A stretch of DNA of 25,833 nucleotides. Source: a virus (Duplodnaviria; Heunggongvirae; Uroviricota; Caudoviricetes). The stretch is from the IMG/VR virus record IMGVR_UViG_2563366846_000009; one strand, given 5' to 3'. Within the stretch, counting starts at the first letter, position 1, and every line of letters begins with the position of its first letter. The translations under genes were made by a program, and so were the position numbers. Below, piece by piece: positions 8,767 through 16,942 of this stretch. The notes below the pieces were generated by a model, which saw only the letters and a program-made list of their open reading frames with translations, searched no databases and was not told the DNA's origin.

Positions 8767-9603
8767 TCAGAAGTCAGCCAGCTGGTCATTACCGGCACCC
8801 GTTGAGGTGAACCGGCTCTGCGGATCGCTGTCCTGCGTGCGCAGCTTTTCCTTCAGTGCTGCCAGCTCTGTGGTCAGTGACGTGATTTTCTGGCTGTCCT
8901 GCTGATGGCGGGTTTCCAGTGCATTAAAACGGTCGATAATGTCAGCCTGTGACGTTGCGACGCCTTCCACCGCTTCCTGAATACGGGAGAAACTGGCGTC
9001 ATCCGCTTTGCGGCCACGGCCAATAATCCCCATTACGCGGTTAAACCACTGGGTGCCTTCTTCCTGGCGTTGTTCGGTGAGTTCGATGAGTTCCGATTCC
9101 ATAGCGACGGTGAACATCGCCACGTCTCCCTGCTGACAGTTGAATGTCATCAGTTGCATGCGTTGTTGTGCCGCAAAAGCCAGACGTTCCGTGCCCAGAC
9201 TGGCGGGGGTGTCGGTCATGGCCAGCCCGCGCAGGTAAGGGCCACCCGTGATGGTTGACTGAGGTTCCAGCTCAATACTGGAGTAAATTTTTTTACCATC
9301 GTTAAGCAGGGACATCATGCGAGCGGTCGGCTCAATTTCGGCATACAGTGCCGTGCGTCCTGCCAGCGGGCCATCGGTTATGTCTTCGGTGCTCAACCCC
9401 ACAACATCGCCCATAGCGGAAAACTCGCTACCGGGGAGTGGTGACAGGATGTGCTCAATATTCACACGTGCACCATAAACGGACGGGTTATAACTGGTGG
9501 CGGCAGCTTTCAGCATGGCGCCGTTGATTTCGCGCCCGTCTGCCGTCACACCGGAGACAGCCACACGAAACTTTTTGCGGGATGTCTTTTTTTCATTAGC
9601 CAT
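8767..9603 (-). CDS. O: Capsid scaffolding protein O
   Basis: 278-aa ORF at the P2 O position and size, upstream of and co-oriented with N. Confidence 0.85.
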   Translation of the reverse strand: MANEKKTSRKKFRVAVSGVTADGREINGAMLKAAATSYNPSVYGARVNIEHILSPLPGSEFSAMGDVVGLSTEDITDGPLAGRTALYAEIEPTARMMSLLNDGKKIYSSIELEPQSTITGGPYLRGLAMTDTPASLGTERLAFAAQQRMQLMTFNCQQGDVAMFTVAMESELIELTEQRQEEGTQWFNRVMGIIGRGRKADDASFSRIQEAVEGVATSQADIIDRFNALETRHQQDSQKITSLTTELAALKEKLRTQDSDPQSRFTSTGAGNDQLADF

Positions 9604-9755: not shown

Positions 9756-11507
9756 ATGATTCAGGACGCTTTTGTGCGCCAGCGTGCGCGACAACTTTAC
9801 TGGCAGGGGTATCCGCCCGCAGAAATATCACGTCTGATGGGAATAAACCCGAACACGATTTATGCGTGGAAAAAACGGGACCAGTGGGATGAAACGCCAC
9901 CCGTGCAGCGTGTCACGCAGTCCATCGATGCGCGCCTCATCCAGCTTACTGAAAAACAGAATAAAACAGGCGGTGACTTCAAGGAAATAGACCTGCTGAC
10001 CCGGCAGCTTAAAAAGCTGCATGATGGCCAGCCGGATGCGACGGCCGCAGGAAAGAAAGGCCGGGCGAAAAAACTCAAAAATCATTTCACGCCGGAACAG
10101 ATTGCCGCACTGCGGGAAAAAATCATCAGCAGGCTGGAGTGGCATCAGCGGGGGTGGTTTGACTCCCTGACCCTTTGCAGGGAAGCCGGGATACGTAACA
10201 GGATGATCCTGAAATCCCGACAGATTGGGGCGACCTGGTATTTTGCACAGGAAGCACTGTTGATGGCGCTGCGTGACGATGTGGCGCAACCTTACCAGCG
10301 TAACCAGATTTTTTTGTCTGCGTCGCGTCGTCAGGCGTTCCAGTTTAAAAACATTATTCAGAAGGCCGCAGCTGAAGTCGATGTGGAGCTGAAAGGGGGC
10401 GATAAAATCATCCTCTCCAACGGCGCAGAGCTGCATTTTCTCGGCACTTCTGCGGCGACGGCACAGTCCTACACGGGCAATTTCTATTTTGATGAATTTT
10501 TCTGGGTCAGTCGCTTTGCTGAACTGCGCAAGGTGGCTGGCGCTATGGCAACCCTCAGCGGACTGCGGCGCACCTACTTCTCCACGCCATCCACCGAAAC
10601 GCATGAGGCATACGTTTACTGGAACGGCGACCGCTGGAACGAGAAAAAGGCCGCGCATAAACGCCAGCGTTTTTCTGTGGACTGGAAAACGCTGCATAAC
10701 GGGCTTATCTGCCCTGACCGGACGTGGCGGCAAATTGTCACGCTGGAAGATGTGGTTAATCACGGCTGGAAACACACCGATATCGACGAAATTCGTGATG
10801 AAAACACCGAAGACGAGTTCCTCAATCTCTATATGTGTGAGTTTGTCCGCGAAGGGGAATCGGCATTTAACCTGAATATCCTGATTGGCTGCGGTGTTGA
10901 CGGATACGACGACTGGAAAGACTGGAAACCTTTTGCTCCCCGCCCGATGGGGAATCGTCCGGTATGGATTGGATATGACGCAAACGGCAGCAGTGGCAAC
11001 GGCGACAGTGGCGCTGTATCCGTGGTGGTTCCTCCGGCTGTTCCTGGTGGCCGTTTTCGAACGGTGGAGACGCGACGCGTTCAGGGGCTGGAGTTTGAAG
11101 AACAGGCCAGAGTCATTGAAGAGTTCACGTATCGCTACAACGTGGAACACATCGGCATTGATGCGACGGGCGGGCACGGGGATGCCGTTTATCAGATAGT
11201 GAAAAGGTTTTTTCCCGCTGCCATCCCGTACACCTTCACGCTGTCATCAAAACGGTCGCTGGTACTGAAAATGCTGCAAATAATGCGCGCCGGGCGGTGG
11301 GAATACGATCGCGCCGAACGCGAGCTGGTCGCAGCCTTTAACGCTGTGCGTAAGGTGAAAACACCAGGCGGTTTTATCACTTACGAAACGGACCGCGCGA
11401 GGGGGATCAGCCACGGCGACCTTGCGTGGGCAACCATGCTTGCTGTCATTAACGAACCGATTGGCGGCGAAGGAGAAAACGAGCGTTTCACGGTTATGGA
11501 GTTCTGA
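9756..11507 (+). CDS. P: Terminase ATPase (large) subunit P
   Basis: 583-aa ORF with N-terminus MIQDAFVRQRARQLYWQGYPPAEISRLMGINPNTIYAWKKRD, size and position of P2 gpP. Confidence 0.9.
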   Translation: MIQDAFVRQRARQLYWQGYPPAEISRLMGINPNTIYAWKKRDQWDETPPVQRVTQSIDARLIQLTEKQNKTGGDFKEIDLLTRQLKKLHDGQPDATAAGKKGRAKKLKNHFTPEQIAALREKIISRLEWHQRGWFDSLTLCREAGIRNRMILKSRQIGATWYFAQEALLMALRDDVAQPYQRNQIFLSASRRQAFQFKNIIQKAAAEVDVELKGGDKIILSNGAELHFLGTSAATAQSYTGNFYFDEFFWVSRFAELRKVAGAMATLSGLRRTYFSTPSTETHEAYVYWNGDRWNEKKAAHKRQRFSVDWKTLHNGLICPDRTWRQIVTLEDVVNHGWKHTDIDEIRDENTEDEFLNLYMCEFVREGESAFNLNILIGCGVDGYDDWKDWKPFAPRPMGNRPVWIGYDANGSSGNGDSGAVSVVVPPAVPGGRFRTVETRRVQGLEFEEQARVIEEFTYRYNVEHIGIDATGGHGDAVYQIVKRFFPAAIPYTFTLSSKRSLVLKMLQIMRAGRWEYDRAERELVAAFNAVRKVKTPGGFITYETDRARGISHGDLAWATMLAVINEPIGGEGENERFTVMEF

Positions 11508-12553
11508 TGAGCAGAAAAAATAAAAAAGTGCGCATGAGTTCACGCATTGATCTCGCTGATGTGCTCAGGAAAGAATCGTCGCTCAGTGCATTCACATTTG
11601 ATGGTCCTTACCGCCTGACCGGGCATGATTTGCTGGACAATATGTACTGTGCTGATAACGGTCGGTGGTATGAAACCCCGGTGGACTGGTACGGTCTGGC
11701 AAGAGCAGCCCGGCAAACGTCCTGGCATCAGTCTGCGCTTTACTTTAAGCGTAATGTATTGCTCGGTTGCTATATTCCGCACCCGCTGCTTTCCCGGCAG
11801 GATTTCTCGGCGCTGGCGCTGGACTGGTTTGTGTTCGGTAACGCATTCCTTGAGCTTCGAAGCAATATGCTCGGCGAACCACTTAAATTACGGCACGCCC
11901 TGGCGAAATACATGCGACGCGGAAGCGATCTTGAATCATGGTGGTATGTGCAGGATGGCAAGGACGCGTTTCAGTTTCGCCCTGGCAAAGTGTGCCACCT
12001 GATGAATCCTGACATTAACCAGGAAATCTACGGCATGCCGGAATATCTCGGCGCATTACTCTCGGCCAGCCTGTCTCATTCGGCGGACATGTTCAGAAAA
12101 CTGTATTACGACAACGGCTCCCACGCCGGGTGCATCATCTACATCGGTGCAGCGCAGGTAAGCCGCGAAAGCATGGACTCCCTGAAGGAAACGCTACAGG
12201 GTGCGCGTGGTGGTGGTGCATTTAAAAACGTGCTCATTCATGCGCCCAACGGGGGCAAAGAGGGGGTGCAAATTTTGCCGTTCCAGCAGATCACCGCAAA
12301 GGATGAGTTCATGAATGTTAAGGCGGCATCCCGTGATGATGTGCTGGCTGCGCACCGCGTTCCGCCGCAACTGATGGGGGCGATGCCGGGTGAAAAAAGT
12401 GCGTTTGGTGATGTGGAGAAGGCCGCGCGGGTTTACGCAATTAACGAGCTGATGCCCGTCATGGAGGCCATGAAGCACATCAATGACTGGCTTGGCGAAG
12501 AGGTGATCCGTTTTAACTCTTATGCACTTCTTGATGAAAAAACAGCCCCGTGA
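11507..12553 (+). CDS. Q: Portal protein Q
   Basis: 348-aa ORF overlapping the P stop by one base, size and position of P2 gpQ. Confidence 0.9.
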   Translation: MSRKNKKVRMSSRIDLADVLRKESSLSAFTFDGPYRLTGHDLLDNMYCADNGRWYETPVDWYGLARAARQTSWHQSALYFKRNVLLGCYIPHPLLSRQDFSALALDWFVFGNAFLELRSNMLGEPLKLRHALAKYMRRGSDLESWWYVQDGKDAFQFRPGKVCHLMNPDINQEIYGMPEYLGALLSASLSHSADMFRKLYYDNGSHAGCIIYIGAAQVSRESMDSLKETLQGARGGGAFKNVLIHAPNGGKEGVQILPFQQITAKDEFMNVKAASRDDVLAAHRVPPQLMGAMPGEKSAFGDVEKAARVYAINELMPVMEAMKHINDWLGEEVIRFNSYALLDEKTAP

Positions 12554-12570
12554 TGGGGCTGTCCTTTTTA
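12540..12570. terminator. Bidirectional intrinsic terminator between convergent Q and the 174-aa gene
   Basis: Hairpin cagccccgtgatggggctg flanked by an A-run upstream and tccttttta downstream, so it reads as stem plus U-tract on both strands. The Q stop codon sits in the loop. Confidence 0.6.
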
Positions 12571-13092
12571 CCAGAGTTGAACCATTTTCTGGGTGCCGTC
12601 AGGCTTGAGATTATCAATTTCAGAGAGAACGTAATATTGAATGGCTTCACAAACGGTGGTGTATGGTGAATTACCTTCTTTAAGTGGCACGATATTATTA
12701 TTAACGCGAACCTGTATTTCATCGTTATACATTGCGATCGAAAGAGGAGTATGTACGAACGCGACTTCGCCAGGTGTGTCGTCAACCACTGTCTCAATGC
12801 TAAAAGTCAGTTTTCGCTCATCATTGCTGCCTCTTGCTTTGGGGGTTGCGGCAGGAATCTGGGATAAAGGCATTCTGCGAAATCCTTCGGCCGTTTCCAG
12901 TCCGCATGAAACGTAATGCTGGCGATTACCGTCGATATCTGTCCACGCTTGTGACGGCAGATCCAGCGAGATTTCATAAGCATCAACAATTCCCTGGGCA
13001 AGGCGTACAAGCGGGGTCAGGTCTTCATTGCGGCGAAAGCTCTCCTTTACCTGCTCTCGTTTTTCTCTTAACTGCTTGTAATTAATGACCAT
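12568..13092 (-). CDS. Hypothetical 174-aa protein, low-GC cargo gene next to the portal
   Basis: ORF with ATG at 13092 preceded by GGAGG at 8-nt spacing; the track extends it to a GTG at 13131. No recognisable motif. Markedly AT-richer than flanking phage genes. Confidence 0.55.
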   Translation of the reverse strand: MVINYKQLREKREQVKESFRRNEDLTPLVRLAQGIVDAYEISLDLPSQAWTDIDGNRQHYVSCGLETAEGFRRMPLSQIPAATPKARGSNDERKLTFSIETVVDDTPGEVAFVHTPLSIAMYNDEIQVRVNNNIVPLKEGNSPYTTVCEAIQYYVLSEIDNLKPDGTQKMVQLW

Positions 13093-13193
13093 AAGACAGC
13101 CTCCATTGATTTCTTTGCTCGTATTTTGCACTTATGAAGTGTGGTCGGCAAGGTGTCGCATCACTGACGCGCTTCGCTTGTCTGCTGCTTCGC

Positions 13194-13216
13194 CGGGGCA
13201 TAAAAAATTTATGCCC
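13194..13216. other. Perfect 10-bp-stem hairpin upstream of the 174-aa gene
   Basis: ggggcataaa aaa tttatgcccc, about 100 bp upstream of the start at 13092. No adjacent T-run on either strand. Confidence 0.4.
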
Positions 13217-13504
13217 CGACTCTCCAGCTCCTGTATCAATCAGATAATTTCACAACGCCTTCCAGCTTATCGCCATCATCGACGGCCAGGCTCTTACGCA
13301 ATCCCACCGCGCTGACTGCATGTTCTCGCCGCCTCAGTGCGATTTTGACGGCCTTATCTGTCACCCCATCAAATCAAAAGCCCTCACGTCTTTTTCACGC
13401 TCAGCGTGAGAAAGACAGCCATTCTGTTGTGTCGCTGCGACATCGTTCAGGGAATGCTATTTACCCCCTGAAACGCGGGCTGTTCCCCCGTCACCTGCGC
13501 GCAG

Positions 13505-13624
13505 AAAAAACGCGTTTTTTTGTGCATGCACGGATCCTTGACGGATCCAGCCGCCATGCGGGCCGGAAGGGTAAAAAGTCGTTCAAAAAAATTGTGCAAA
13601 TTTGTGCACTATTGTGCATTGAAA
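13505..13624. promoter_or_regulatory. Cluster of palindromes and 10-bp-phased TTGTGCA direct repeats in a 520-bp non-coding region
   Basis: Palindrome aaaaaacgcgtttttt (13505..13520), palindrome gtgcatgcac (13522..13531), ggatcc-N4-ggatcc (13532..13547), then TTGTGCA at 13593, 13603 and 13613. Confidence 0.45.
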
Positions 13625-13650
13625 TAAACGCCCTGGAGGAGGGCGTTTTA
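13624..13650 (-). terminator. Intrinsic terminator downstream of the 135-aa gene
   Basis: Stem aacgccct / agggcgtt with loop ggagg directly after the stop at 13652; minus strand continues tttatttc. Confidence 0.55.
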
Positions 13651-13651
13651 C

Positions 13652-14059
13652 TTATCTTTTATAGCCTTGCCCCTTCCTGGCCAGCGCCCTGATGGCCGGG
13701 CGTGCCAACACCATATTTTGGCAATGATGAATTGCCCGGCAAAATTCATCTCTACCCATTGGATGCTCAACTGGCAACGTTAAATACAGGTTCCATGCGT
13801 CGCCTAAAAGTTGGGCTATCTTTTGTTCTTCAGATGTCAGCAAGCAAGCGGTATCCGTAAAATAATCATACTTTTCATGTATGTTATTTAACGGTTTTGT
13901 CTGTAGTGCAGCCTGAGCTATACGGTATGCCTGAAGCATACTGGCGTCGTTGATATCCATTCCGAACGGAATTTCTGATGATTGTGACTCTGCATCTTCA
14001 AGCCTGGCAATTTCTTTACGTAAGAAGTATTTCAACTCTTGTTTCTGTTTTCTGTTCAT
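13652..14059 (-). CDS. Hypothetical 135-aa protein, translationally coupled to the ClpX-zinc-finger gene
   Basis: ATG overlaps the upstream stop (ATGA at 14056..14059). Low GC. No recognisable motif. Confidence 0.6.
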
Positions 14060-14388
14060 GCGTTTTTTTCCTTTTTGTCTGTCACTTCTTTCCTGATAAT
14101 TTCATTGCACAAATCCACGCACTCATTGCAGATGTAAACAGACGGTCCGGCAATCACCTTTGTGACTTCGTACTGGGATTTATTGCAGAAACTGCAATAA
14201 ACCGTCTTCTCGCCTGAAGTCCATGTTTTGCTGGTTTCGCCAGACATCAGTTGTTTGAGGTCTTTTTCACGACGAAGAACTATCTGGCCACATTCAGCTA
14301 TTTTTTGGATGTTGACATTTTCTTCTTTCGCCAGCGCTTCCATCCGCTCAATCAGTCGCTGCGCTTTTTCTCTGTCAATGTGTTGCAT
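14056..14388 (-). CDS. Small protein with C-terminal ClpX-type C4 zinc-binding domain
   Basis: Residues [38 protein letters not shown] are near-identical to the ClpX N-terminal zinc-binding domain, with all four Cys conserved. No AAA+ module follows; the first about 55 aa are unrelated. Confidence 0.85.
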
Positions 14389-14653
14389 TGTGTCCCCCTT
14401 GTTTATGTTCCCGGGTTAAAGTCATCAGGGCGGATGCGCCCTGATGTTGTGTTATTCGGGAAATAACGCCCGGATATTTCCGGCCATCTGACTGGTTATC
14501 TGTGCGGTTGGTACTGGCTGTGACACGGGGCGTTCTGTCCTACAATCAACCTCAGAGCATGGGCTATCCGGGATGGCCTCATACCACGCCAGCGTCGACT
14601 GATAGTTTTGTGCTGCCTCACGCAGTGCCTGGTAATTAATTTCGCTCACTGGT
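14389..14653. repeat. Copy B of a duplicated module (block P 14389..14541 plus block G 14542..14653)
   Basis: Block P is about 93 percent identical to 15601..15756 (3' end of parR, intergenic hairpin, RBS and ATG of the next gene). Block G is about 90 percent identical to 15493..15603 (5' end of the 213-aa gene). Block order is swapped relative to copy A. Confidence 0.75.
14452..14649 (-). CDS. Small chimeric ORF (65 aa from a GTG start): conserved SEINYQALREAAQNYQSTLAWYEAI motif fused to a ParR-like C-terminal tail
   Basis: GTG at 14649 is preceded by GGAGG at 6-nt spacing. The N-terminal 25 aa match the 213-aa protein exactly despite six synonymous DNA changes. The C-terminal 27 aa (ERPVSQPVPTAQITSQMAGNIRALFPE) match the ParR-like protein tail. 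The track calls a longer 98-aa version from 14748. Confidence 0.4.
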   Translation of the reverse strand: MSEINYQALREAAQNYQSTLAWYEAIPDSPCSEVDCRTERPVSQPVPTAQITSQMAGNIRALFPE

Positions 14654-14965
14654 TGCCTCCTGTTTGAATCTGCGCACGGAAAGAATTGGGCATTTTGTAA
14701 TCCCGCCCTCTTTCTCCCATCGGAGGAGCGGGAATCGATATGCTTCAAAATTAAGCCCCGCAGAGCGATCGCTTTGGAAGCATTTCTTACCTACCACCCA
14801 AACGTTTTCGAATCGACGCTCAATGCGAACTGCCGTCCTCCATCCGAATGGCGCGCCTGCATTTACGGCTGCATTTTTTGTCGGAAAAGTTGGCACGGAT
14901 GACACAATTTCATCAACACGCACGCTTAGGTGGCAATCGTCGACATAACTAATTGAAGCTCTCAT
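14636..14965 (-). CDS. Hypothetical 109-aa protein, coupled to the 213-aa gene
   Basis: ATG at 14965 overlaps the 213-aa stop (ATGA). No recognisable motif. Confidence 0.5.
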   Translation of the reverse strand: MRASISYVDDCHLSVRVDEIVSSVPTFPTKNAAVNAGAPFGWRTAVRIERRFENVWVVGKKCFQSDRSAGLNFEAYRFPLLRWEKEGGITKCPILSVRRFKQEATSERN

Positions 14966-15603
14966 GACTGAACTCCTTTGCGAAGCTGCTCCGCACAATG
15001 CAGCAGGGCGTCCGTCGCTTCTTTCACCGTAACGATGTCGCCATCGTCCAGCCCGGCAACCGTCGCGTCCTTAACGAACACCGAGCAAAGGTCATTAAAC
15101 GCCTGCGCTCGTACTTCAGCCAGAAAAGCATTGGTGGCTGGGGTTTCCGGCAATAATCCGCCAACCAGTTCTATTTCTGTTCTGAACCGGGAACTAGACA
15201 CAACGCGATAAGTCAGGTTCGGCATTCTGGCTGCCACTTGCATCTCAAACTCCTCTCCAGATTCCAGCCCGGCTTCATGGGCGTAATCAAGCGGGCTTCT
15301 GACAGGCTCTGAAGCTTCGCCGCCCCAGTAAATCAGGTTCGACTTCAGCCCTGCATTCTCCGCAGCCAGCACCGCAAGATTAGCCTCCAGCTCTGCAATA
15401 CGCTTGTTTTGGGCTTCCCGCTCATCCAGCAGCTCGGCGATAATGTCCATTTCCTGATGACGGATTTGACGCTTAAACGCCGCCACTGCTTCGCTACAAT
15501 CCTGCTCAGCATTTGGGTTATCCGTGATGGCCTCATACCACGCCAGCGTCGATTGATAGTTTTGTGCCGCCTCACGTAATGCCTGATAGTTGATTTCGCT
15601 CAT
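14962..15603 (-). CDS. Hypothetical 213-aa protein with conserved N-terminal motif and central coiled-coil-like region
   Basis: ATG preceded by AAGGAG. Heptad-like stretch REAQNKRIAELEANLAVLAAENAGLKSNL and an acidic C-terminal half. Possible resemblance to Ead/Ea22-like prophage proteins is unverified. Confidence 0.65.
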   Translation of the reverse strand: MSEINYQALREAAQNYQSTLAWYEAITDNPNAEQDCSEAVAAFKRQIRHQEMDIIAELLDEREAQNKRIAELEANLAVLAAENAGLKSNLIYWGGEASEPVRSPLDYAHEAGLESGEEFEMQVAARMPNLTYRVVSSSRFRTEIELVGGLLPETPATNAFLAEVRAQAFNDLCSVFVKDATVAGLDDGDIVTVKEATDALLHCAEQLRKGVQS

Positions 15604-15756
15604 TATGTCGTTCTCCTTGTTTATGCTCTGAGGTGGAGATCAGGACGAACTCGCCCTGACGTTGTGTTATTCAGGAAATAACGCCCGGATATTTTCAGCC
15701 ATCTGACTGGTTATCTGTGCGGTTGGTGCTGGCTGTGACACGGGGCGTTCCGTCCT
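15493..15756. repeat. Copy A of the duplicated module (block G 15493..15603, block P 15601..15756)
   Basis: Counterpart of 14389..14653; includes the imperfect hairpin caggacgaactcgccctg just after the parR stop. Confidence 0.75.
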
Positions 15757-15978
15757 GTTTTGTGTCACTGATAACGCCTCATCGTCAGCCCATGCAGCCA
15801 GTCGGTAAGCCTCTGCCGGATTCATTTTCAGAAGTGCCAGCCCGGCCATAAAAGCCACGCGTTGACCGCTTTTGTGGGCTTCTGGTGTAAGGCTGTCCAG
15901 CCAGGCGCATGCTTCGCCTTCGTTCTTGACGGCGGCGGGCTTCAGATAGAAACTTATCCTCCTGGTTGATGTCGCCAT
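15667..15978 (-). CDS. parR: ParR-like partition adaptor
   Basis: ATG at 15978 sits 4 nt after the parM stop with AAGGAG upstream. The 103-aa product aligns by eye with plasmid R1 ParR (ISFYLKP..., AGLAL..., C-terminal NIRALFPE versus ILRSLFPKE). The track shows a longer ORF from 16113. Confidence 0.7.
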   Translation of the reverse strand: MATSTRRISFYLKPAAVKNEGEACAWLDSLTPEAHKSGQRVAFMAGLALLKMNPAEAYRLAAWADDEALSVTQNRTERPVSQPAPTAQITSQMAENIRALFPE

Positions 15979-15982
15979 TGAT

Positions 15983-16942
15983 TTACTCCTTGTCCATTGC
16001 GTGCAGCCCATTAACCAGAGCAAACTGTGGCACCCCGTCCGCAATGAAAGTCGCATTAACTCCGCAGGCTTCGCGGATAGCGGGTGCCACAATCTCCGCT
16101 CCTCCACCGACAACCATCACCCGCCCGTAACCCGAAAAAACCGCCAGCGCGCGGATCACGCGTTGCTTCAGTGTTTCTTCCTTTTCACGAATAACCGCCA
16201 TCAGGCTGGCGTAATGCGCGTCATTGTGGATGTGCTGGCGCAGCCAGGCTTCATCATGGCGATGTTCGATAATGGTATTGGCGATGTGGTGACTGGTGCG
16301 CATACCGTTAGTGGCCATCACCGACAGTACGGCATCGGCCATCAGAGAAACGCCTACGTGTGGATCGCAAAACACCTGGCTGATACCTGCCAGTTGCCCC
16401 TGAACCTTTGCCACATCCAGCGTGGTTCCGCCCAAATCCACAATCAGCAGGGATTCAAACGGACTCATGTCAGCCAGTGCCTTAAAGCCAGCCGGAATGG
16501 ATTCAGGCATAACCCGCACGTTACGGATAGTGAATGCTTCGCCGTTCTGGTACTTCACCGGGCGCATAACGTTCGCTTTTTTGCGGTTGATGTTGGCCAT
16601 GTCCGGCTGTGCGTTTGTGTCGAAATACTCGCTCAGTGGCAGGGTGACAACCACATCCACCTCCTGTGGCGTGATGCCTGATTTGACCAGCGCGTGATGA
16701 ATGGCAATGACATTCACATCACTGTACTGGTATTGCGTGTCGGTTGTCTGGACAAAGCGATCGCTGACCGGATCAAAACCATAGCGCACGCCATCAAGCA
16801 TGTAGTTCGCGGGCTGCGTGCCACCGAACGGCGCAGACCATTCCGACTTGAAGCTGTTCGGGCTGATAGCGTTGCGGCGTTCGCCGTTCTCAGTCCATGC
16901 CAGCTTGATGTTGGTGGAGCCGTCGTCGATACAAATTTTCAT
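15983..16942 (-). CDS. parM: ParM/StbA actin-like partition ATPase
   Basis: 319-aa protein with extensive colinear similarity to R1 ParM: IDDGSTNIKL, ISPNSFK, YSDVNV, HHAL, MPESIPAG, SLLI(V/I)DLGGTTLD, LSGIS, GVSL, GGGAE, LVNG. Confidence 0.9.
   Translation of the reverse strand: MKICIDDGSTNIKLAWTENGERRNAISPNSFKSEWSAPFGGTQPANYMLDGVRYGFDPVSDRFVQTTDTQYQYSDVNVIAIHHALVKSGITPQEVDVVVTLPLSEYFDTNAQPDMANINRKKANVMRPVKYQNGEAFTIRNVRVMPESIPAGFKALADMSPFESLLIVDLGGTTLDVAKVQGQLAGISQVFCDPHVGVSLMADAVLSVMATNGMRTSHHIANTIIEHRHDEAWLRQHIHNDAHYASLMAVIREKEETLKQRVIRALAVFSGYGRVMVVGGGAEIVAPAIREACGVNATFIADGVPQFALVNGLHAMDKE

Follow-up and report, generated by a model that had tools for sequence, protein, structure and literature searches.

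The DNA considered here is a stretch of 25,833 nucleotides from the Caudoviricetes record IMGVR_UViG_2563366846_000009 (the window, to whose numbering all positions refer). By megablast it is a P88-like (Xuanwuvirus, Peduoviridae; P2-family) Escherichia coli prophage, with 94-96% identity. The subject is ORF174, a minus-strand open reading frame (ORF) of 174 codons located between the portal gene, the counterpart of P2 Q, and a long non-coding region. The gene order is replication endonuclease, ParM, cos core, ORF174, portal; with the head module on one side and ParR/ParM and gpA on the other, ORF174 therefore lies within the gpA-gpQ interval of a P2-family prophage. The gene and its immediate surroundings comprise the following features.

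12568..13092, minus strand: ORF174 gene, ATG at 13092, TAA at 12568-12570, 174 aa, member of PHROG 5091
13100..13104, minus strand: GGAGG ribosome-binding site, 7 nt upstream of the ATG, located by sequence inspection
13123..13151, minus strand: candidate sigma-70 promoter TTGCCG-N17-CAAAAT, -35 at 13151-13146 and -10 at 13128-13123, 8/12 matches
12542..12562, both strands: bidirectional intrinsic terminator common to portal and ORF174, a hairpin with T runs on either side
12536..13163, minus strand: accessory cassette of 628 bp, present here in place of ~14 bp of P88 sequence and absent from P88
12536..12553, plus strand: portal 3′ end supplied by the cassette, ending ...YALLDEKTAP before the stop, vs. 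...YALLDTQPTS in P88
13193..13219, no strand assigned: conserved GC-rich hairpin, no T run, minus-strand folding energy -24.7 kcal/mol, just outside the cassette

The ORF174 Gene and Its Expression Signals

An earlier prediction, made from the sequence alone, had described an orphan low-GC gene with its own ribosome-binding site. The gene is intact at exactly the coordinates and on the strand then proposed, with both start and stop confirmed, and the GGAGG is present and kept in PhiR44_2, ST131 and KOr024. A GTG-started version of 187 aa (to 13131) is unlikely, since the homologues all begin M-V/T-I-N/T-Y at the ATG. The gene is indeed AT-rich relative to the late genes: its GC content is 46.1%, with 44.6% at third codon positions (GC3), vs. 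53.1% (GC3 60.2%) for the portal gene and 54.2% for the large terminase gene, the GC3 of portal and terminase lying at 60-61%. The shift is moderate, as 10% of all 525-bp windows are equally low or lower. The product is an acidic, soluble protein of 19.8 kDa (isoelectric point, pI, 5.0) with no hydrophobic segment. Judged from its substitution pattern, ORF174 is a functional protein-coding gene under purifying selection, because the ratio of non-synonymous to synonymous rates (dN/dS) is 0.07-0.12 in pairwise comparisons of E. coli alleles that carry 17-21 synonymous differences.

The portal gene (11507-12553, plus strand) is convergent with ORF174, and only 14 nt separate the two stop codons. 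The terminator hairpin spans this junction: its loop contains the portal TGA (12551-12553), and on either strand five consecutive T follow the stem. Its folding energy is -16 kcal/mol for the plus and -20.6 kcal/mol for the minus strand, a stability that none of 200 shuffled sequences (0/200) attains. Convergence with Q and a shared bidirectional terminator, both proposed in the earlier reading, are thereby borne out. The outcome for the weak promoter that it also named is mixed: the TTGCCG-N17-CAAAAT site exists, but with 8/12 matches it falls under the 9/12 threshold of the scanner, and sites of this quality are expected by chance 1.2 times per kb per strand. The candidate -10 element ends 30 nt before the ATG, and the site is kept in four E. 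coli alleles. Comparable elements are seen in two diverged alleles, one from Salmonella (locus L017, 61% identical), where the element ends 33 nt upstream of the ATG, and one from Trabulsiella (45% identical), where it ends 29 nt upstream. No such element was found upstream of a 56%-identical Salmonella allele (locus L019). That ORF174 has its own promoter is a reasonable but unproven proposition. An Rfam scan of 12400-13800 gave no match.

Cassette Boundaries and Distribution

The limits of the insert emerge from a three-way alignment of this DNA, P88 and PhiR44_2, in which P88 homology continues to ~12535 and restarts at CTGACGCGCTTCGC (13164). The cassette has a GC content of 46.1%; the terminator travels within it, and the last portal codons are rewritten by it. 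In P88 and P884B11 the portal stop leads straight to the conserved hairpin with no 628-bp insert, and these two phages and most sequenced relatives lack ORF174. Rather than being a structural component with homologues in all P2-like phages, which would have spoken against an accessory role, the gene is missing from P88 and about two thirds of P88-like prophages.

The prophage junction occurs in 1,146 of 5,426 complete E. coli genomes and is in the filled form in 397; among the remaining junctions listed, most have a match span shorter by ~700 bp, which is read as the empty site. Searching with ORF174 alone likewise retrieves 397 E. coli genomes, all copies being chromosomal and 395 of them full length. 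Because the gene-alone and junction counts are both 397, with 395 full-length copies, ORF174 in E. coli is found at the portal junction only and is rarely degraded. It is present in ~7% of complete E. coli genomes, including the pandemic O25b:H4-ST131 lineage. Only two plasmid records carry ORF174, both with the same E. coli allele, and for this reason a link to plasmid leading regions was rejected.

Across the conserved core, the cargo consists of five different gene sets in five prophages (this DNA, PhiR44_2, ST131, KOr024 and OkiPb01675), and the cassette is therefore inherited independently of the far-side cargo. As in classical morons, it is inserted between features that are adjacent in P88 and P884B11, deviates in GC content and has its own terminator. 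ORF174 is an optional, horizontally acquired, compositionally foreign accessory cassette with its own translation and termination signals. Separately, the far-side cargo of the ST131 prophage (L005:7661-10244) comprises IS421, a DUF4760 protein and a 280-aa protein with a weak Csx27-like PADLOC match (1.1e-5); the last two may form a two-gene system.

The PHROG 5091 Family

The term orphan does not hold, as residues 1-168 of the ORF174 product match profile positions 1-164 of 164 of PHROG 5091 (E = 5e-66). A profile search of 1.84 billion cluster representatives retrieves 89 proteins at E ≤ 0.001, most of them 155-175 aa long and matching end to end; the relatives checked come from Serratia, Klebsiella, Morganella, Entomohabitans, E. 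coli and metagenomes. A word-indexed search yields 19 close relatives, every one named "hypothetical," from E. coli, Salmonella and Trabulsiella. The earlier statement that the protein shows no recognisable domain stands for Pfam, NCBIfam and PADLOC-DB v2.0.0, none of which gives a match, and has to be qualified by the full-length match to PHROG 5091, a family of unknown function. All 50 members of an alignment match PHROG 5091 and no other PHROG, and they share the conserved motifs Y..SL.LP...W.D..G...YV..G, F.I.TV.DD.P and EVC..IK. None of the 50 has a meaningful Pfam or PADLOC match, apart from two single marginal PADLOC matches (E ~0.005-0.009). For the known anti-defence families (ArdA, Ocr, KlcA, Acb/Tad etc.), ORF174 has no Pfam or NCBIfam match and the 50 relatives have none in Pfam.

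Genomic contexts vary widely. Two Salmonella P2-like prophages carry copies that are 61% (L017) and 56% (L019) identical, portal-adjacent and convergent with the portal gene, and in L019 the junction with the conserved hairpin falls at the identical nucleotide. The flanking portal and terminase proteins are 68-78% identical vs. 56-61% for ORF174, so the divergence of this cargo is somewhat greater than that of its flanks. The Trabulsiella homologue comes immediately after gpA, with HicAB and Phd/Fic modules next in line. Among lambdoid prophages, three unrelated ones have the gene either between those for the Q antiterminator and the holin or immediately behind the lysis genes; two E217-like myoviruses have it as an interruption of the tail module, in one case with Ant, Arc and HicA as neighbours; and in one environmental bacterium it stands alone in the chromosome. 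No conserved toxin-antitoxin partner was found in any context examined. Because the gene is solitary and has different neighbours in every case, PHROG 5091 members behave as mobile accessory genes and not as core or structural genes.

Beyond the conserved hairpin, 27 complete E. coli genomes, DG342-2 among them, contain a second cassette of ~580 bp. It occupies L003:3071-3650 in DG342-2, equivalent to an insertion near 13225-13235, and in these genomes the portal end is as in P88 and is followed by the conserved hairpin and then by the insert. Its RefSeq protein of 236 aa is an in-frame fusion with a small conserved upstream ORF; the last 167 residues have their own ribosome-binding site (AGAGGA) and match the PHROG 5091 profile (hhalign 98.5%, E = 1.7e-15, 152 columns). 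Hairpin 13193-13219 thus lies between two alternative insertion points, ~100 bp apart, of family members that are ~20-25% identical and both convergent with the portal gene. This paired docking suggests either a functional link between family and location or repeated allelic replacement, as occurs in conflict genes.

Predicted Structure

The check by remote homology and structure prediction that had been recommended for the gene gave PHROG 5091 membership and a confident model, but no match to a solved fold. AlphaFold2 reached a predicted local distance difference test score (pLDDT) of 78 with 11 sequences and of 89.8 with 50 (predicted template modeling score 0.80), the topology being the same. 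The ORF174 product is predicted to be a compact, soluble, single alpha+beta domain, in which helices 5-22 and 26-42 at the N-terminus and helix 145-159 at the C-terminus accompany an antiparallel sheet built of long strands. Only the loop at ~80-92, an insertion specific to the P2-phage subfamily, is poorly predicted. Foldseek searches of PDB and BFVD returned nothing at E ≤ 0.001, and no fold was assigned. Designed helical-repeat proteins in the PDB (5cwb and others), reported by phmmer at E = 2e-7, are an artefact of three summed repeats, each with E ~2.

Proposed Function and Alternatives

The gpA-gpQ interval of P2-like prophages is a cos-adjacent hotspot for defence genes (Rousset et al., 2022, PMC9122126). 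The survey that described it lists the ST131 allele, WP_000236495, 167 times as "hypothetical" (Table S5 of PMC9122126). No main-text mention of phrog_5091 or WP_000236495 was found in the literature, a test in Brenes & Laub 2025 not being excluded. The locus is thus already catalogued and the gene itself uncharacterised. Published priors for the function of unknown hotspot genes are modest: over one third of the cloned candidate systems were active (PMC9122126), and for P2 proteins without a known function, an antiviral role is predicted in 15-32% (PMC13586616).

In the mechanism proposed here, the insert between the portal 3′ end and the conserved cos-proximal core would be an autonomous moron cassette, composed of a weak sigma-70-type promoter, the GGAGG ribosome-binding site, the 174-codon gene and the bidirectional terminator. 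ORF174 would have a transcript of its own, uncoupled from the late operon and probably made in the lysogen. Its product would probably act by stoichiometric binding of another protein, a mode suggested because the protein has neither a catalytic motif nor a membrane segment and the gene has no partner. The most likely target would be some part of a rival phage or satellite, and the outcome would be exclusion of that element, by a logic analogous to that of P2 Tin and without homology to it. A role in mobile-element conflict, most probably one in which the lysogen excludes a rival phage or satellite, is favoured because of the hotspot location, the presence/absence polymorphism, the replacement by distant homologues and the insulation from both late and early operons; we put it forward tentatively, at somewhat below an even chance.

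Several points weigh against exclusion by the lysogen. Small acidic single-domain binders are typical of anti-defence proteins too. In all five non-P2 phage contexts (5/5) the homologue is co-oriented with the late genes, which fits expression in the lytic cycle as well as in the lysogen. The promoter match is weak (8/12), and cos separates ORF174, which is on its Q side, from the canonical variable cargo, to which old and tin belong. Moreover, the protein does not appear in the table of tested systems of the hotspot survey (PMC9122126).

A small acidic binder could also serve counter-defence, being made during infection or induction and neutralising a host immune protein or sequestering its signal; diversifying selection would then swap in distant alleles. 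A soluble single domain with a pI of 5.0 and no catalytic motif agrees with such a role, as do the co-orientation with late genes in the lambdoid and E217-like phages and the presence of an Acb2/Tad1-like gene in the same late accessory region of a Morganella prophage. In P2-like phages, however, the gene is convergent with the late operon and is separated from the early operon by the terminator, the cos core and the strong hairpin. Known anti-defence genes are also rare in P2-like prophages (28/1,511, PMC13586616), PHROG 5091 is essentially absent from plasmids (two matches, same gene), and the fold matches are within noise. Counter-defence is accordingly regarded as unlikely, though far from negligible.

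Lysogenic conversion unrelated to phages, acting on host physiology, stress tolerance or virulence or providing orphan immunity to a bacterial toxin, would agree with the wide occurrence of the gene in successful clinical lineages such as O25b:H4-ST131, and the P2 hotspot does hold non-defence cargo, e.g., cytolethal distending toxin and partition systems (PMC9122126). Yet ORF174 has no signal peptide, membrane segment, toxin partner or effector-like feature, its family is confined to prophage accessory sites apart from the single environmental chromosomal context, and the fold matches are not significant, which together make such a function improbable.

The recurrence of the family beside head, lysis or tail genes would be accounted for if the product were a dispensable helper of phage late functions (packaging, portal, cos handling) or a virion-internal protein. 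The two distant family members ~100 bp apart between portal and cos, the 56-61% identical copies at the same place in Salmonella P2-like phages and the late-gene setting of every non-P2 context point in this direction. Against it, the gene is absent from P88 and ~2/3 of near-identical prophages, and at least the sequenced P88-like phages without it were recovered as phages; in P2-like phages it runs opposite to the late operon, with no Ogr-type late promoter seen by eye (no scan was run); and in Trabulsiella the homologue follows gpA, in the early operon region. A late-function helper is for these reasons likewise improbable. Finally, although neither a function nor a transcript is known for ORF174, a non-functional remnant or chance ORF is barely conceivable and effectively already refuted by the conservation data, given the dN/dS of 0.07-0.12 with 17-21 synonymous differences, the 395/397 full-length copies, homologues with conserved motifs detectable down to ~22% identity and the confident predicted fold (pLDDT 89.8).

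If exclusion of competing elements, or else counter-defence, proved to be the function of ORF174, a small, enzyme-free, single-gene system would be added to the catalogue, and the P2 cos-proximal hotspot would reach the portal side of cos; with no such phenotype, the gene would be one more hypothetical cargo gene in an already described hotspot. The family is spread over several kinds of temperate Enterobacterales phage, and the gene is prevalent in E. coli. In the broadest interpretation, PHROG 5091 would be a group of previously unrecognised single-protein, enzyme-free conflict factors of temperate enterobacterial phages, whose members could exclude phages or satellites or counter host defences, and the portal-cos stretch would be a second, dedicated docking site for divergent members in P2-family phages. 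The docking site is suggested because homologues ~20-25% identical flank the hairpin and because L019 uses the identical junction and L017 is portal-adjacent; this generalisation is possible but rather doubtful.

Neighboring Genes and the Conserved Core

On the portal side of ORF174, the window contains a P2-type head module.

8767-9603, minus strand: capsid scaffold
9756-11507, plus strand: large terminase, with a gpP-like N-terminus
11507-12553, plus strand: portal (Pfam Phage_portal)

On the other side, the minus strand carries small accessory genes, the ParR/ParM partition module and the gpA replication endonuclease. The long non-coding region said to adjoin ORF174 is real: it spans 13164-13651 and is ~95% conserved among P88-like phages, some records annotating a 42-aa ORF inside it. 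No Pfam match exists for this candidate ORF (MTDKAVKIALRRREH...; 13236-13364, minus strand), which the records of P88 (as gp22), P884B11 and PhiR44_2 list as a hypothetical protein. Conservation is very strong over 13164-13620 in all P88-like phages, and the pattern of variation is not codon-like. This core, which separates ORF174 from the main variable cargo in P88-like phages, presumably holds cos and the terminase-binding sites; cos itself would lie within 13164-13650, a placement made by synteny alone. A search with the P2 cos 19-mer gave no convincing match, the best in the non-coding region (13/19 at 13477-13495) being reached by 11% of shuffles. The linear P884B11 record ends at the equivalent of 13572/13573, an endpoint that may be arbitrary. 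The region also contains three direct TTGTGCA repeats ~10-11 bp apart (13588-13620) and a GGATCC...GGATCC palindrome (13533-13550). Hairpin 13193-13219 has an identical sequence in Salmonella locus L019.

Directly adjoining the core is a minus-strand cargo gene for a 135-aa protein (13652-14059), followed by a terminator at 13626-13648. The C-terminal 65 residues of this protein match phrog_13916 (labelled "DNA ligase"), and it has no Pfam domain. The next gene (14056-14388, minus strand), conserved in P88 and PhiR44_2, encodes a 110-aa protein of phrog_6797, whose sole recognisable domain is a C-terminal C4 zinc finger of the ClpX type (Pfam zf-C4_ClpX, 6.8e-18; residues 64-99). The protein lacks an ATPase domain and might be a decoy for substrates or adaptors of ClpX. 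Further along, 14424-14648 and 15494-15756 contain two adjacent direct repeats (118 nt, 92% identity; 109 nt, 85%) through which the ParR-like gene is duplicated at its 3′ end and an Ead/Ea22-like gene at its 5′ end, yielding a chimeric 98-aa ORF at 14452-14748. This duplication looks like a recombination scar in the main cargo region. The partition module (15667-16942, minus strand) consists of ParM (StbA) and ParR (Plasmid_stab_B); a partition system occurs in about a quarter of P2-like phages, corresponding to the P88 group (Rousset et al., 2022, PMC9122126).

Comparison with Known Systems

The original prediction placed ORF174 where P2 carries old or other exclusion genes. This is correct in that the gene lies within the gpA-gpQ defence hotspot (PMC9122126), but not in detail, as in P2 the old and tin genes, whose transcription leads away from cosR, occupy the right end of the genome, with cos between them and Q, and the P2 Q-cosL gap is just 186 bp including the tQ terminator. 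Like other hotspot cargo, ORF174 sits between A and the portal gene Q, is variably present and is compositionally foreign; unlike it, ORF174 occupies the portal side of the conserved cos core, the main variable cargo being on the other side.

P2 Tin, a lysogenic conversion protein that blocks T-even phages, interferes with a protein of the invading phage. Like the ORF174 product, it is a soluble protein made from a solitary prophage gene of the A-Q interval, and no domain is recognisable in it. In contrast, Tin has 253 aa and is co-transcribed with old from a promoter beside cosR, on the other side of cos, and alignment of the PHROG 5091 family profile to Tin by hhalign gives a probability of 0.4% over 10 columns. 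With P2 Old the likeness extends only to the general genomic neighbourhood and the status of non-essential cargo. Old is a 586-aa OLD-family ATPase/TOPRIM nuclease, whereas the ORF174 protein has 174 aa and no match to an ATPase or TOPRIM domain in Pfam, NCBIfam or PADLOC.

Classical morons (Hendrix/Juhala; HK97 gp15, lambda bor) share with ORF174 the optional insertion, the deviant composition and the own terminator, and ORF174 would probably have a promoter of its own as well. Membrane proteins make up most of the exclusion morons characterised, however, whereas the ORF174 product is cytoplasmic as judged from its sequence. Set beside these systems, ORF174 is an uncharacterised addition to the cargo of the P2 cos-proximal hotspot, with its prevalence and the recurrent docking of one family beside the portal gene as noteworthy features.
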